The notes under the pieces were generated by a model. It saw nothing but the letters and a program-made list of their open reading frames with translations. It ran no database searches and had not been told where the DNA came from. Positions 1 to 4,156 of a DNA stretch of 4,227 bases are shown one piece after another (the stretch's first letter is position 1; the number at the start of each line of letters is the position of its first letter). The stretch comes from a virus (Duplodnaviria; Heunggongvirae; Uroviricota; Caudoviricetes): the IMG/VR virus record IMGVR_UViG_2554235189_000008, one strand, 5' to 3'. A program made the translations under genes and the position numbers.

Positions 1-19
1 GGATTCCCGGGGCGGTTCA
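1..19 (-). mobile_element. Terminal inverted repeat (left end) of an IS3-family insertion sequence, IS629/IS1203-like; the element body lies outside the window to the left
   Basis: Reverse complement of 1-19 is TGAACCGCCCCGGGAATCC, an 18/20 inverted match to 4168-4187. It starts with TG as IS3-family termini do, and the lambda-like O reading frame breaks exactly at 19/20. The IS629 name is from memory. Confidence 0.6.
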
Positions 20-223
20 GTCCATTGGTTTATTCCACCCATAGGTTTTACGCAGAATGGCAAGCAGCACTTTAAACTGTCGCTTGGTCAGATCTGCGCC
101 TGAATAAGCCTCAATCAGCATATTTGATAGTCTGGCGTAACCATCATCGAGATCTGCCACATTACGCTCCTGTTCGGCAAAGTTACCTCTGCCGAAGTTG
201 AGTATTTTTGCTGTATTTGTCAT
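17..223 (-). pseudogene. O: Replication initiator O, N-terminal 68 codons only, truncated by the IS insertion
   Basis: Translation MTNTAKILNFGRGNFAEQERNVADLDDGYARLSNMLIEAYSGADLTKRQFKVLLAILRKTYGWNKPMD matches my memory of the lambda O N-terminus almost residue for residue. The in-frame stop (revcomp of 17-19) is supplied by the IS terminus TGA. No ori or O C-terminal domain is present. Confidence 0.8.
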
Positions 224-233: not shown

Positions 234-309
234 GTGGATTGATCCAGTAATTCCCTCAGAATTCCATCTGGATTTGTTCAGAACGCTCGGTTGCCGCCGG
301 GCGTTTTTT
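234..309 (+). ncRNA. oop: oop-like antisense RNA (antisense to the 3' end of cII)
   Basis: Plus-strand sequence GATCCAGTAAT...CCATCTGGATTTGTTCAGAACGCTCGGTTGCCGCCGGGCGTTTTTTATT is close to the lambda oop/t0 region as I recall it. It ends in a GC-rich hairpin plus T6 and lies in the cII-O junction overlapping the cII 3' end. Confidence 0.55.
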
Positions 310-552
310 ATTGGTGATTCCATCAAGCGCATACTTAAAAGCCCTGCTAATCGGACTGATGTCTGATGCCATTCCGAAAGCACACAGGACCGAAGCAATA
401 AACCGCCAGTCCGTTCTGCTTATCTTCGATTCATGACAGCCAATCATCTTTGCCAGACCGCGCTGGGTAAGCGTTGACAGGTTGATGAGTAAATCAGTTT
501 CAGCGCGATCAATTTCTCGCTGTGATAGTTTGCTGTAACTTGTTTGTTCCAT
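256..552 (-). CDS. cII: cII-like transcriptional activator (mosaic: C-terminus matches lambda cII, N-terminal two-thirds diverged)
   Basis: 98-aa ORF. C-terminal ...TNKKRPAATERSEQIQMEF is identical to the lambda cII C-terminus as I recall it. Position between cro and O is syntenic with lambda. Confidence 0.85.
   Translation of the reverse strand: MEQTSYSKLSQREIDRAETDLLINLSTLTQRGLAKMIGCHESKISRTDWRFIASVLCAFGMASDISPISRAFKYALDGITNKKRPAATERSEQIQMEF
284..309 (+). terminator. Rho-independent terminator (oop terminator, lambda t0-like)
   Basis: Stem CGCTCGG (284-290) / CCGGGCG (297-303) with one G-U pair, loop TTGCCG, followed by TTTTTT (304-309). Confidence 0.7.
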
Positions 553-690: not shown

Positions 691-924
691 TTATGCAGCC
701 GATGCTCTACGCGATACGAACACTAGGTTTTCCTTTTTCACAGGTTTATAACCCGTGAAATTACGAGTAGCTTCTTCGATTGCATTCGCTTTATCAGGGG
801 AAGCTCTTCGAAATCCATATGCAATCTGGTCAAGATAGCCAACTGAAGTTTTCGCTAATGCGGCGAGTCGCTTCCATTCCTCACTAGAAGCCTCTTTTCG
901 CCAGCGTAGTAGTTCATTACTCAT
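691..924 (-). CDS. cro: Cro-like HTH repressor, divergent from cI
   Basis: 77-aa ORF transcribed divergently from cI across the operator region. SD GGAGG (revcomp of 931-935) lies 6 nt before the ATG. Probable HTH in ...TSVGYLDQIAYGFRRASPDKANAIEEAT... Confidence 0.75.
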   Translation of the reverse strand: MSNELLRWRKEASSEEWKRLAALAKTSVGYLDQIAYGFRRASPDKANAIEEATRNFTGYKPVKKENLVFVSRRASAA

Positions 925-935
925 TAGTGCCTCCG

Positions 936-1019
936 TTTATCACACAGAACAACTTTACCATTTTGATAAATCAACCGCAATGTAAATTTATCATATTGCG
1001 TATTTATCCATTTGCTAAA
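936..1019. promoter_or_regulatory. OR operator region: four 17-bp sites built on TTTATC-N5-GATAAA half-sites (936-952, 954-970, 987-1003, 1003-1019)
   Basis: Read directly: TTTATCACACAGAACAA, TTTACCATTTTGATAAA, TTTATCATATTGCGTAT, TTTATCCATTTGCTAAA at roughly 17-bp periodicity between the divergent cro and cI starts. Confidence 0.6.
952..980 (-). promoter_or_regulatory. PR-like promoter toward cro (-35 TTGCGG = revcomp 975-980, 17-nt spacer, -10 TAAAGT = revcomp 952-957)
   Basis: Sigma70-like hexamers with 17-bp spacing on the minus strand, overlapping operator sites 936-952 and 954-970, about 25 nt upstream of the cro SD. Confidence 0.45.
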
Positions 1020-1037
1020 TAGAGGGAAAATTGTGAG

Positions 1038-1742
1038 ATGGAAAACAAAGATATTCGCAAATCGAATCTGGCGTTTTTGCTAGATGAGCATAAAAAAATC
1101 GCGGGTAACACTAATGCAAGCTTTGCCGATAAGCTTGGGGTTAGCCCTTCTCAACTCACGCAAGTCTCCGGTGAAAAAAGCACTCGAAACATAGGGGATA
1201 AACTAGCAAGAAAATTTGAAGCCGCGCTTGGGTTACCTAATGGGTGGCTTGATTTGGTACATGATGTAACACCAATTGCATCATGCTCAGATTCTTTAAC
1301 TTTTGTCGGTCAGGTAAGAAAAGGGTTAGTGCGCGTGGTTGGTGAGGCAATTCTTGGTGTTGATGGTGCCATCGAGATGACCGAAGAGCGCGATGGGTGG
1401 CTCAAAATTTATAGCGATGATCCAGATGCCTTTGGTCTTCGTGTGAAAGGAGACAGCATGTGGCCCAGAATAAAATCAGGAGAATATGTACTCATTGAGC
1501 CTAACACCAAAGTATTCCCGGGTGATGAGGTGTTTGTCAGAACCGTTGAAGGACACAACATGATTAAGGTTCTTGGCTATGACAGAGATGGAGAATACCA
1601 ATTTACAAGCATTAACCAGGATCACAGGCCTATAACGTTGCCTTATCATCAAGTAGCAAAGGTGGAGTATGTAGCTGGTATTCTGAAGCAATCTCGCCAT
1701 CTGGATGACATCGAGGCAAGGGAGTGGCTGAAAAGTTCGTGA
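1038..1742 (+). CDS. cI: CI-type prophage repressor, N-terminal HTH plus C-terminal S24 (LexA-like) autopeptidase domain
   Basis: 234-aa ORF. HTH-like segment ASFADKLGVSPSQLTQVSG, and the S24 catalytic-serine motif GDSMWP with a downstream Lys (MIKVL). Divergent from cro across the operators. Confidence 0.9.
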   Translation: MENKDIRKSNLAFLLDEHKKIAGNTNASFADKLGVSPSQLTQVSGEKSTRNIGDKLARKFEAALGLPNGWLDLVHDVTPIASCSDSLTFVGQVRKGLVRVVGEAILGVDGAIEMTEERDGWLKIYSDDPDAFGLRVKGDSMWPRIKSGEYVLIEPNTKVFPGDEVFVRTVEGHNMIKVLGYDRDGEYQFTSINQDHRPITLPYHQVAKVEYVAGILKQSRHLDDIEAREWLKSS

Positions 1743-1802
1743 CTTCATCGTCACATAGCTGGTAACCAGTGGCCAGAAGAAACGTTTGGGTGAGGAGGAT
1801 AG

Positions 1803-2144
1803 ATGGCGTTCACTGACCTTGAATATCAAGCGGTCAAAAAAGAAGTTCACCAATTCATTGAAAGCATAAGGCCGCCTGAACATATCCGCAATGAACTGGA
1901 TATTGTTTATAGCATCAATGACCAAACGATAGATATCGGCGAACAGCGCCCCGTGTGGCAGGGCAACCCAGGTGAAACAAACATCCTGCCATCAGCAAGA
2001 ATCAAGTACATACGTTCTCTGGATAGATGGAAAATCTATTGGATGCGGAAGGATATGAAATGGCATCAGTACAGTACTGAACTTTCGCTGACTGATGCGC
2101 TTGAGCTTGTGCGTGCTGACCCGGATTGCTGCTTCTTCGGATGA
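1803..2144 (+). CDS. Hypothetical protein (113 aa), first gene of the cI-downstream accessory cassette
   Basis: Strong SD GAGGAGG (1792-1798) 4 nt before ATG 1803. Co-directional with cI, 60-bp gap after the cI stop. Trp-rich C-terminal half and a terminal DPDCCFFG. I cannot assign a family. Confidence 0.75.
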   Translation: MAFTDLEYQAVKKEVHQFIESIRPPEHIRNELDIVYSINDQTIDIGEQRPVWQGNPGETNILPSARIKYIRSLDRWKIYWMRKDMKWHQYSTELSLTDALELVRADPDCCFFG

Positions 2145-2214
2145 GTGAAGAGACGTTTGGATGATGGATGATCGCAGAGATGCTCGTAGAGCATACAGCG
2201 ATGCAGGAGAATTT

Positions 2215-2649
2215 ATGGCACTTAATTTAGAAAGAATATCTTTTATAACCCCATTTGATAGCAGCGAAGAACCCAACCAACCGACGCTTAATTTTACATG
2301 CAATGAATTTCCTGCGCGGCTATCAATTGATTTCAGGGTTGGTATGATCGGGTTGAAACCAAATTCAAGATATAATTTGGGTATTATGGTAATCCCCGCG
2401 CACCTAATTATAAAAAAAGGTGAGGAAATTCAATTCCCTGACGGCTCTTCGGAATCAGTTTCACTTTTCATCGATACGAAAGATAGCCATTTTGAAACAG
2501 GGGTTGGCGGACAGGTAATAGTAACATTGAAAGAAATTAGGGTCCCAGCTAAAGGGCTGTATAGTGTTATAGGGATATTGCAAGATAATGAAGACCCTAA
2601 AAATGAACTTCATAAAAATGAATCATTTTTCACCGTAGAGCTATTATGA
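2215..2649 (+). CDS. Hypothetical protein (144 aa from ATG 2215; the longest ORF starts at 2161 and gives 162 aa), second gene of the accessory cassette
   Basis: ATG 2215 is preceded by AGGAG (2205-2209) at 5-nt spacing; ATG 2161 has no good SD. The stop TGA (2647-2649) overlaps the next gene's ATG (2646-2648). No recognisable motif. Confidence 0.7.
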   Translation: MALNLERISFITPFDSSEEPNQPTLNFTCNEFPARLSIDFRVGMIGLKPNSRYNLGIMVIPAHLIIKKGEEIQFPDGSSESVSLFIDTKDSHFETGVGGQVIVTLKEIRVPAKGLYSVIGILQDNEDPKNELHKNESFFTVELL

Positions 2650-3266
2650 GTGACGACAGTAATTTAAATAATCATGGAAAGCAAGACACCAACATATCTG
2701 AAAGCCGGAGGTTGAAGGTTGTTGGCGGTTCCGATTTTGAGGCTGAATTTGATAATTCTCCCACCAAGGTGCAAAATAATTACATAAAACCGCCACAAAC
2801 GGAGGAAGAAGTGGGAACGATCAGCAGAGAGGAACTTGATGCTCGCTTAGCTGCTAATAAAGCAGAGATGGAGTCTATTGCTTCTTCCATTAGGGCTGAC
2901 ATGGCTCTATCTCGTGAAAGCGTTAATGTCCAATTTGCATCACTTAATGCAGCCATAAGCTCTCTATCGTCCAAGATCGATGGAAAGATGGATAGCGCTG
3001 CTGGCGATATAAAAGCAATTAATGGGAGATTCGAAGGAATTCAAGGACAAATAACAGGGGTTAATACCGCAATTAGTGGTGTTCAGTCGGGTATTTCTAT
3101 ACGATTAGCCATTTTTAGTGTCATTATCGCTGTAATAGTTGCGATTCCCGGGCTGGTATCAGCTTTAAAGTCAGACCACGCACCTTTGCAACAGCCTTCC
3201 ACTTTGCAAGCGCCGCCACAAAATACCCAGCCAACAGACAACAAAAAAACCACTCCCCAGCATTAA
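2646..3266 (+). CDS. Hypothetical membrane-anchored protein (206 aa): N-terminal soluble region with predicted coiled-coil character, one C-terminal TM helix, Pro/Gln-rich tail
   Basis: Single hydrophobic stretch IRLAIFSVIIAVIVAIPGLVSAL (about residues 152-173, nt ~3100-3165). Preceding Ala/Ser/Ile-rich heptad-like sequence. ATGA start/stop overlap with the upstream gene. Confidence 0.75.
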   Translation: MSDDSNLNNHGKQDTNISESRRLKVVGGSDFEAEFDNSPTKVQNNYIKPPQTEEEVGTISREELDARLAANKAEMESIASSIRADMALSRESVNVQFASLNAAISSLSSKIDGKMDSAAGDIKAINGRFEGIQGQITGVNTAISGVQSGISIRLAIFSVIIAVIVAIPGLVSALKSDHAPLQQPSTLQAPPQNTQPTDNKKTTPQH

Positions 3267-3272
3267 CGCATT

Positions 3273-3300
3273 AACCCGGCCTCAGCGCCGGGTTTTCTTT
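3273..3300 (+). terminator. Rho-independent terminator ending the cI/accessory operon
   Basis: AACCCGGC (3273-3280), loop CTCAGC, GCCGGGTT (3287-3294), then TTTTCTTT through 3300. It starts 7 nt after the stop of the last cassette gene. Confidence 0.7.
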
Positions 3301-3404
3301 GCCTCACGATCCCCACACCTAAAAACACATAACCAATTGTATTTGTTGAAAAATAAATAGATACAACTTGCTAAACAACGCAATCCAGATCTCCCTCAAA
3401 TCTC

Positions 3405-3530
3405 TTTATTTATCCTGTCGAATTCCTACAACAAAATAAAACACCATAAGAATCAATACGATATTTGAAAACCAAGAGAATTTATCATTTTGCTATTGCC
3501 ATTAATTTATCATTCCGATAAAGTTCACCC
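3405..3530 (+). promoter_or_regulatory. OL/PL-like region: TTTATC operator sites (3409-3414; 17-mers 3481-3497 and 3506-3522) and PL-like promoter (-35 TTGCCA 3496-3501, 17-nt spacer, -10 TAAAGT 3519-3524)
   Basis: Site 3506-3522 TTTATCATTCCGATAAA is a perfect inverted repeat of the half-site seen in OR and overlaps the -10. The same -10 hexamer TAAAGT is used by the PR candidate. Confidence 0.45.
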
Positions 3531-3772: not shown

Positions 3773-4156
3773 ATGACACGCAGAACTCAGTTCAAAGGCA
3801 ATTCACATTCTCGTCGTCGTGAGCGTTTAAAGGCAAAGGCATTAGCTAACGGCGTGCTGGCCCGCGAAGAAGCAATAAGTTCAGAAGTATTACACCGCCC
3901 TACTCTAAGCAGAGCGCAGATTCAGGCTAAAGGTACTCACGAAACGCCTGAGCGCATAGAAGACGCTAAGCCAATTAAGTTCATGGCACAGGACGTGATC
4001 TGGCAGCAGAAAGAATACAGACGCAATCTGGAGCGAGCGGCCATTGTGTACGCGAATGAGTTTGGACATAAGCAACCAGAAACTGGTGTATGTCTTCCAA
4101 ACGTAGCCATTTACGCTGCAGGCTACCGGAAATCCAAACAACTGACAGCAAGATAA
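3773..4156 (+). CDS. N: N-like transcription antitermination protein (127 aa)
   Basis: N-terminal arginine-rich motif GNSHSRRRERLKAKALANG resembles the lambda N ARM (QTRRRERRAEKQAQW). Position downstream of OL/PL and a boxB hairpin. SD AGGAGG 5 nt before the ATG. From memory the sequence resembles N of H-19B/933W-type phages. Confidence 0.75.
   Translation: MTRRTQFKGNSHSRRRERLKAKALANGVLAREEAISSEVLHRPTLSRAQIQAKGTHETPERIEDAKPIKFMAQDVIWQQKEYRRNLERAAIVYANEFGHKQPETGVCLPNVAIYAAGYRKSKQLTAR

Follow-up and report, generated by a model that had tools for sequence, protein, structure and literature searches.

Exclusion genes carried on the lysogenic transcript beside the repressor are a familiar concept, represented by rexA-rexB of lambda, hex of phage 434, sieA/sieB of P22 and the BstA gene downstream of the BTP1 repressor. 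The corresponding slot of phage 933W carries Stk, an abortive-infection kinase active against HK97 (PMC3564112), and this kinase gene, which lies downstream of a gene for a DUF3024 protein, is reported to share a transcript with cI (PMC3564112, citing Tyler et al. 2004). Here we analyse a 4,227-nucleotide stretch of a Caudoviricetes genome (IMG/VR record IMGVR_UViG_2554235189_000008; the whole stretch is called the window below) in which the slot downstream of cI holds three open reading frames (ORFs), termed ORF1, ORF2 and ORF3. An initial annotation, made from the sequence alone, had taken the three for a single cassette and a candidate undescribed anti-phage or superinfection-exclusion system. 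Sequence comparison indicates instead that the slot is filled by two independently acquired cassettes in series, ORF1 and the ORF2-ORF3 pair. With a probability of about 0.55, we read them as stacked, lysogen-expressed cassettes in which the pair combines a sensor or adaptor with a membrane effector for phage exclusion. The slot concept and the candidate status of DUF3024 were already known; the two-cassette architecture with its boundary relics, the modularity of partner and N-terminus across the ORF3 family and the conserved linkage of this family to repressors are new.

The repressor-linked slot and its cargo

The window contains a lambdoid immunity region, its + strand corresponding to the leftward direction of lambda, with the gene order cro(-), cI(+), cargo, terminator, OL-PL and N(+) (Table 1). 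To the right of the cargo, positions 3272-3393 are 91% identical by blastn to lambda 35710-35827, a segment that takes in the terminator and has the rexB stop codon at its start. The same boundary is 98% identical to HK542 (blastn), and in Stx2 phage 86 (Stx2-86) it is matched over 3272-3349 only, at 95% identity (blastn). Judged by flank homology and gene order, the cargo interval is truly a rexAB-equivalent, repressor-linked accessory slot, as the initial annotation had proposed. Its description of the terminator as clean and intrinsic was also borne out, since an 8-bp stem with six GC pairs precedes a T-run and the RNA fold of -17 kcal/mol (z = -4.2) was equalled in stability by 0 of 200 shuffles. 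The three ORFs are co-directional, as described, and the last two overlap by ATGA at 2646-2649. The length given for ORF2, about 144-162 aa, narrows to 144 aa: an AGGAG at 2205-2209 and homologues of 143-144 aa place the true start at ATG 2215 and not at 2161.

The cargo and the repressor gene in front of it form a mosaic. Positions 1315-2183, comprising the C-terminal domain of cI and ORF1, are 99% identical in DNA to Stx2 phage 86, and positions 2146-3393 are 98% identical to HK542. Homology to Stx2-86 ends at 2183 and resumes at 3272, so that the end of the 933W-type segment (~2183) and the start of the HK542-type segment (2146) place their junction at the second of two relics described below. 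The repressor itself is a hybrid: in a protein alignment its residues ~93-234 are identical to cI of Stx2 phage 86 (933W type), with a break near 1315, and the N-terminal DNA-binding domain, cro and operator regions differ from that phage. A different immunity specificity is therefore implied on a common cleavage and dimerisation domain.

The boundaries of ORF1 carry traces of another repressor gene. Lambda-type cI genes terminate in ...QWPEETFG-stop, and HK542 has a true cI end of this kind. An 18-nt direct repeat in the window (1776-1793 and 2147-2164) corresponds to this 3' end; both copies lie 3' of the real cI stop (1742) and bracket ORF1. Relic 1 has the same arrangement in Stx2-86 and in all three-gene loci. 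We found two relic copies in every three-gene locus and one copy, the true cI end, in every two-gene E. coli locus fetched, and degenerate cI-end copies adjoin DUF3024 in Erwinia and an ORF2-like gene in Cedecea. On these comparisons, the relics are footprints of cassette exchange through recombination at the cI 3' end. The cI 3' end and the conserved terminator segment form the left and right limits of the slot, and its cargo is probably swapped by recombination at such common sequences. Base composition also separates the two cassettes, with GC at third codon positions of 0.49 in ORF1 against 0.32 (31.7%) in ORF2 and 0.37 in ORF3. All three ORFs had been thought, by eye, AT-richer than cI, cro and N; this is clear for ORF2 (37.5% GC) and weak for ORF3 (43.5%), but fails for ORF1 (45.9%, against 44.5% in cI and 44.4% in cro; N has 48.4%). 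The boundary relics make cargo swapping and stacking in the repressor slot concrete, and they supply a rule for mining it: extract the interval that runs from the cI 3' end, or a relic of it, to the terminator segment.

Surveying 5,426 complete E. coli genomes, we found ORF1 in 227, the ORF2-ORF3 pair in 51 (about 1%), with both genes always together, and the ORF1-ORF2 junction in 18. Some 209 of the 227 genomes with ORF1 thus lack the pair, and 33 of the 51 with the pair lack ORF1. The three-gene arrangement recurs at 97-100% identity in those 18 genomes and in 14 IMG/VR contigs, and the only carriers of the pair among 50,697 phage records are HK244 and HK542. ORF2 and ORF3 stand together in every locus examined, with the 4-nt overlap in every fetched locus that has an ORF2-like partner; no DUF3024 gene was found beside ORF3 relatives outside E. 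coli in the loci compared, which were 46 from IMG/VR, one from Xenorhabdus and those of four genomic look-ups. The initial annotation had named separate occurrence without conserved linkage as a finding that would speak against a single cassette, and for ORF1 and ORF2-ORF3 this is what the genomes show. Of the proposal that the three genes travel together, the part concerning ORF2 and ORF3 stands, and the part joining ORF1 to them does not.

Expression with the repressor is likely for the whole cargo. No terminator-like site was found on the + strand between cI and 3272. A promoter belonging to the cargo itself, as in a classical moron, was rejected, as no site in 1743-2215 reached 9/12 matches. 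The sole internal + strand promoter match (2749-2777) falls inside ORF3, and the total of such matches is below shuffle expectation. In Phi24B, RNA-seq showed cI, DUF3024, the RuvC-like gene and stk shifting together, with log2 fold changes of -1.19 to -1.43 (PMC10789677). Together with the 933W data, the lack of an intervening terminator or promoter makes it likely that cI and the three cargo genes share one lysogen transcript, which would run from PRM, their presumed promoter, to the terminator.

Table 1 Features of the window.
Feature	Position	Strand	Basis or remark
Replication gene, partial	17-223	-	ORF listing
cII	256-552	-	Pfam Phage_CII match
cro	691-924	-	ORF listing
OR/PRM-PR control region	925-1037		Between divergent cro and cI; PRM here presumed
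cI, 234 aa, LexA-like S24	1038-1742	+	Pfam Peptidase_S24, E = 3.8e-16
Relic 1 of lambda-type cI 3' end, reads NQWPEETFG-stop	1766-1793	+	Left boundary of DUF3024 cassette; equals HK542 cI end
ORF1, 113 aa, DUF3024 (PDC-S43)	1803-2144	+	GAGGAGG Shine-Dalgarno site, 1792-1798
Relic 2 of cI 3' end, GAAGAGACGTTTGGATGA	2147-2164	+	Marks 933W-type/HK542-type junction; direct comparison with HK542 and Stx2-86
ORF2, 144 aa, soluble, predicted all-beta (phrog_5893)	2215-2649	+	AGGAG, 2205-2209
ORF3, 206 aa, predicted tail-anchored membrane protein (phrog_5820)	2646-3266	+	Family alignment, hydropathy
Conserved right slot boundary	3272-3393	+	blastn against lambda, HK542 and Stx2-86, with lambda annotation
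Intrinsic terminator, predicted end of cI-cargo transcript; counterpart of the terminator after lambda rexB	3273-3300	+	Stem and fold
N	3773-4156	+	Pfam N_peptide match

Repeats of the ATTTATCA type occur both in the cro-cI gap (925-1037) and 5' of N (3470-3530), and probably represent OR and OL operators for the window's own immunity type. A promoter-like site at 3496-3524 is a candidate for PL. Antisense to the 3' end of cII, a promoter-like TTGAGT-17-CATAAT with an upstream TG (198-226, + strand) is followed by a strong terminator (280-307, + strand; 12-bp stem and T-run), a layout that we take to be that of the lambda oop antisense RNA. An Rfam scan of the window, this stretch included, gave no match at E <= 0.1.

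The cargo proteins and their relatives

The initial annotation had found no nameable family for any of the three proteins, which holds for ORF2 and ORF3, whose matches are to unannotated PHROGs only, but not for ORF1. ORF1 matches Pfam DUF3024 (PF11225) with 108.7 bits against a cut-off of 24.9 over residues 4-113, and PADLOC PDC-S43 at E = 7.2e-42 over residues 1-113 of a 115-position model. PDC-S43 is one of 145 predicted PADLOC candidates, which were picked for having homologues inside loci of BREX, DISARM or type I restriction-modification (RM) systems. ORF1, being catalogued as a candidate, is therefore not undescribed. In the literature that we found, DUF3024 appears elsewhere in lists only, and neither it nor the ORF2-ORF3 pair was found in the supplements of one language-model defence paper. 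A confident AlphaFold2 model of ORF1, with a predicted local distance difference test score (pLDDT) of 89.7, has a five-strand antiparallel sheet preceded and followed in the chain by one helix. Conserved positions of the family are mostly aromatic, complemented by a CFFG motif at the C-terminus, and form no evident catalytic pattern. A match of DUF3024 to AvrPto in the PDB (E = 0.07) was taken as chance; PDB sequence searches with all three proteins gave chance-level matches only.

DUF3024 occurs in varied company. In 933W-type Stx phages the gene next to cI is a 99% identical counterpart of ORF1, and behind it come a RuvC-like gene and then the Stk kinase. DUF3024 stands first after the repressor in Salmonella, ahead of a ParA-like ATPase, and in Kluyvera, ahead of a 135-aa protein and an MqsA-like gene; in Rahnella it stands alone near dinI and tail genes. 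Erwinia aphidicola (L016 5001-7130) has a block of DUF3024, a 153-aa 'RuvC-like' protein, a Ser-Thr-Tyr kinase and a small ORF beside dinI and tail genes, with no repressor near, which suggests that the 933W four-gene block can move as a unit. The 'RuvC-like Holliday junction resolvase' label is itself weakly founded, because the 153-aa protein of Stx2 phage 86 (L002 4470-4931) matches Pfam RuvC with 14.2 bits, below the cut-off of 22.2, over its N-terminal 65 residues only. Given this range of contexts, DUF3024 behaves as an independent, portable gene. Most 933W-type Stx phages of pathogenic E. coli carry it in their cI operon, and its role bears on the biology of Stx prophages.

ORF2 matches phrog_5893 (E = 3e-50), a PHROG with no annotated function. 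No signal peptide or hydrophobic segment was found in it, and it is modelled as an all-beta sandwich of Ig-like or carbohydrate-binding-module-like type. ORF3 matches phrog_5820 (E = 9e-77), likewise without annotated function. Its N-terminus (aa 1-57, ~57 residues) is variable and gives way to a helix that the family alignment shows to be conserved, SREEL...NKAE. Six heptads of the I-x-G-x-h-x-x type follow at aa ~109-150 (nt ~2970-3095), and indels within the family fall in 7-residue units. A single hydrophobic segment, with a Kyte-Doolittle maximum of 2.71 at aa 156, forms the one transmembrane helix (aa ~156-178, nt ~3111-3179). Beyond it lie a short motif conserved family-wide as QPIIIQVP, predicted to be periplasmic, and a tail rich in P and Q. 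The absence of a signal peptide and the ~155 residues before the sole transmembrane helix point to an N-in, tail-anchored topology.

The ORF3 tail also contains a direct repeat with 18-nt spacing at 3184-3214 (L013 3501-3534), with the copies CTTTGCAACAGCC and CTTTGCAAGCGCC. Several genomes have a 200-aa ORF3 allele that lacks exactly LQQPST, the six residues between the repeat copies, and this allele looks like a slippage product.

Relatives of ORF3 make up a small family. Scanning species-representative genomes with an ORF3 profile returned one locus only, in Xenorhabdus, and IMG/VR yielded 46 loci; among 1.84 billion cluster representatives, 30 clusters matched at E < 1e-30 and about 100 (50% identity clusters) at E < 1e-10. 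Directly 5' of every relative compared stands a small gene, usually with a 4-nt overlap. Among the partners, at least four classes without sequence relationship can be told apart: ORF2-like proteins of 143-172 aa, proteins of about 95 aa (classes 1 and 4, which are mutually related), proteins of about 100 aa, and a zinc-ribbon protein (CxxC...CxxC) some 115 aa long. A single divergent family embracing all partners was rejected, as phmmer and hhalign join only classes 1 and 4. The N-terminus of ORF3 is specific to the class of partner, and the coiled coil and transmembrane helix are conserved throughout. The pattern L+VVGGSDFEAEFDNS in the N-terminus, for example, accompanies the ORF2-like partners of E. 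coli, Klebsiella, Citrobacter and Cedecea. It is mainly this covariation that leads us to infer docking of the partner on the ORF3 N-terminus.

The position of the module is conserved as well. In most lineages it lies directly 3' of a repressor gene, and at least eight repressor types precede it in E. coli, Klebsiella, Cedecea, Citrobacter, Yersinia and IMG/VR contigs. They include lambda cI, another cI ending in ...QWPEETFG, the hybrid cI of the window and short repressors with only a helix-turn-helix, as well as S24 repressors of Klebsiella, Cedecea, Yersinia and L052. A minority of modules occupy moron positions by tape-measure or tail genes or 3' of dinI, and not behind a repressor (Yersinia L006 4695-5699, Xenorhabdus L021 3355-4438, L057 and L060). 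Between genera, at protein identities of 37-79%, the reading frames remain intact and both the Shine-Dalgarno sites and the 4-nt overlap are retained.

Function of the pair and competing explanations

We read the pair as an exclusion module because of the record of the slot (Rex, Stk), its portability as a moron, the swapping of partners together with a matched variable segment, and a core predicted to be membrane-anchored and oligomerising. ORF3 would be tail-anchored in the inner membrane and would oligomerise through its long cytoplasmic coiled coil, its variable N-terminal ~60 residues docking the small soluble partner ORF2. The partner would serve as sensor or regulator and ORF3 would act at the membrane, either compromising membrane integrity, as in abortive infection by a Rex-like logic, or blocking genome entry. 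DUF3024 may act independently, as a small protein-binding factor. The role in defence or exclusion that had been proposed for the cargo is a reasonable inference, from Stk in the same slot of 933W and from the PADLOC candidacy of ORF1, although not for one three-gene system. For the pair taken by itself, we put an anti-phage role at roughly even odds. A broader and more tentative idea is that Enterobacterales prophages have, in the ORF3 family and its swappable partners, a modular anti-phage system of two components that has so far gone undescribed and that moves between repressor operons via conserved boundary sequences.

Several observations weigh against reading the pair as an exclusion module. 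It is rare, in ~1% of the E. coli genomes, and decayed in some: two E. coli copies carry an IS1 insertion (hits H75 and H76), and two have an in-frame deletion of ORF3 aa 11-112 that keeps the heptads and transmembrane helix (for example L014, E. coli 90-3040, 2932-3246). The covariation of partner and N-terminus rests on ~10 independent lineages, many of the loci being near-identical E. coli copies. ORF2, ORF3 and all partner classes are without a match in PADLOC, Pfam and NCBIfam; against PADLOC-DB v2 they gave only sub-threshold coiled-coil matches (LmuB, E = 0.016; PbeC, 0.0013; PDC-S06, 0.004). Resemblance of ORF3 to pore-forming toxins was not significant (SmhB, E = 0.47; MakE, 15.6 bits against a cut-off of 360), and a Pfam scan gave no match to XhlA. 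With a moderate pLDDT of 63, the ORF2 model retrieves generic folds only, and the DUF3024 fold is without an informative structural neighbour. PDC systems, PDC-S43 included, are candidates predicted by guilt-by-embedding. Anti-phage activity, ORF2-ORF3 contact, membrane topology and co-transcription at this locus are all things that we infer, and a membrane protein expressed in the lysogen could equally serve envelope or virulence functions.

Among the rival explanations, a service of the cargo to its own prophage deserves the most attention, yet we think it unlikely. The genes could act in the switch between lysogeny and lysis, for instance in repressor cleavage, or in maintenance, including a toxin-antitoxin-like pair in which ORF3 is a membrane toxin and ORF2 its neutraliser. 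Tight, repeated linkage to repressors of many types fits such a role, 434 Hex and lambda RexA offer precedents in the same slot (PMC3564112), and overlapping genes for a small soluble and a membrane protein resemble some toxin-antitoxin layouts. However, both the ORF3-partner modules (in the four minority loci named above) and DUF3024 (in Erwinia and Rahnella) also occur away from repressors, which suits a portable moron better than a component of the switch. Partner families that are swapped along with a matching hypervariable N-terminus are more characteristic of sensing in an arms race, and the similarity to PsiB is weak (5% identity). A lysogenic-conversion role of the pair at the host envelope, comparable to that of Bor or Lom (in adhesion, serum resistance or stress tolerance, for instance) and with no anti-phage component, appears less likely again. 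It would agree with the membrane anchor of ORF3, its predicted periplasmic QPIIIQVP motif and P/Q-rich tail, with a fold of ORF2 as in adhesin domains, and with the presence of clinical and animal E. coli among the hosts of the pair. Without a signal peptide or hydrophobic segment, however, ORF2 should stay cytoplasmic, as should the ~155 of 206 residues of ORF3 that are predicted to do so; the fold matches of ORF2 are generic and come from the pLDDT-63 model, and the pair is found in the free-living laboratory phages HK542 and HK244 as well.

The original idea of one three-component defence system, akin to a three-gene Rex analogue, draws on genes that are co-directional, tightly spaced and closed by one common terminator, in an arrangement that recurs in both E. 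coli genomes and IMG/VR contigs. We nevertheless consider it improbable, since ORF1 and the pair mostly occur apart, with HK542 and HK244 viable without ORF1. Recombination relics flank ORF1, its codon composition differs from that of the pair, it elsewhere precedes Stk, ParA-like ATPase or MqsA-like genes, and ORF3 relatives outside E. coli have no adjacent DUF3024 in the loci compared. Neutral hitch-hiking or decay of the cargo would explain the rarity of the pair and its disrupted copies (IS1 in two genomes, internal deletion in two), but it is hard to credit when reading frames, ribosome-binding sites and overlap persist across genera at such divergence, when all three families have many conserved columns and when the ORF3 profile matches ~100 clusters.

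If the pair does exclude phages, it is a new system without homology to catalogued ones, and one of easily dissected design, in which a constant membrane effector would be combined with exchangeable sensors matched via a short N-terminal segment.

Relation to described exclusion systems

The 933W and Stx-phage operon (cI, DUF3024, RuvC-like gene, stk) is 99% identical to the window in DUF3024, in the cI-3' relics and in the part of cI that encodes its C-terminal domain. Its RuvC-like gene, stk and small ORF are replaced in the window by ORF2-ORF3, so that the one validated exclusion gene of the operon is absent; the window contains no kinase, and blastp of ORF2 and ORF3 against Stk gave chance matches only. 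The PADLOC PDC-S43 model is matched by ORF1 over its full length, but ORF1 sits in a prophage repressor operon and not inside a BREX, DISARM or RM locus. BstA, 434 hex and P22 sieA/sieB have the concept of the slot in common with the window, but we found no homology between them and its cargo (Pfam, PADLOC); at E <= 0.1, searches of Pfam, PHROGs and NCBIfam gave no match to SieB (PF14163) or SieA.

The pair itself is closest to that of HK542 and HK244 (EF120457, EF120458 and JQ086373; HK542_035 pair), with protein identities of 100% for ORF2 and 98.5% for ORF3 and the same overlap, terminator and position after cI. In those phages it directly follows a lambda cI, with PRM and PL annotated and no DUF3024. 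The two genes have been in GenBank since the immunity-region records, annotated as hypothetical proteins only, and literature searches by accession and locus tag found no paper on them. Degnan et al. (2007) are said to have noted that the HK542/HK244 pair replaces rexAB.

Lambda rexA-rexB, a system that excludes T4 rII and other phages with depolarisation of the membrane, shares with the window the slot itself, from the cI 3' end on the left to the flank that begins at the rexB stop on the right, and presumably expression with the repressor. The initial annotation saw no resemblance to the Rex proteins, and our searches agree: blastp of ORF1-3 gave chance matches only against RexA (E >= 0.2) and no match against RexB, and no Rex family was matched in Pfam. 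DUF3024 is an additional gene that the lambda cI-rexA-rexB operon does not have. RexA has 279 aa, compared with the predicted 144-aa beta-sandwich of ORF2. RexB is polytopic, with about four transmembrane segments, and hydrophobic across aa 3-139, whereas ORF3 has one C-terminal transmembrane helix and a long coiled coil. The two-gene logic is alike, the gene for a soluble protein preceding that for a membrane protein, and the pair is Rex-like in logic and not a member of the Rex family. Should it exclude phages, it would offer a natural point of comparison for Rex, the mechanism of which remains debated.

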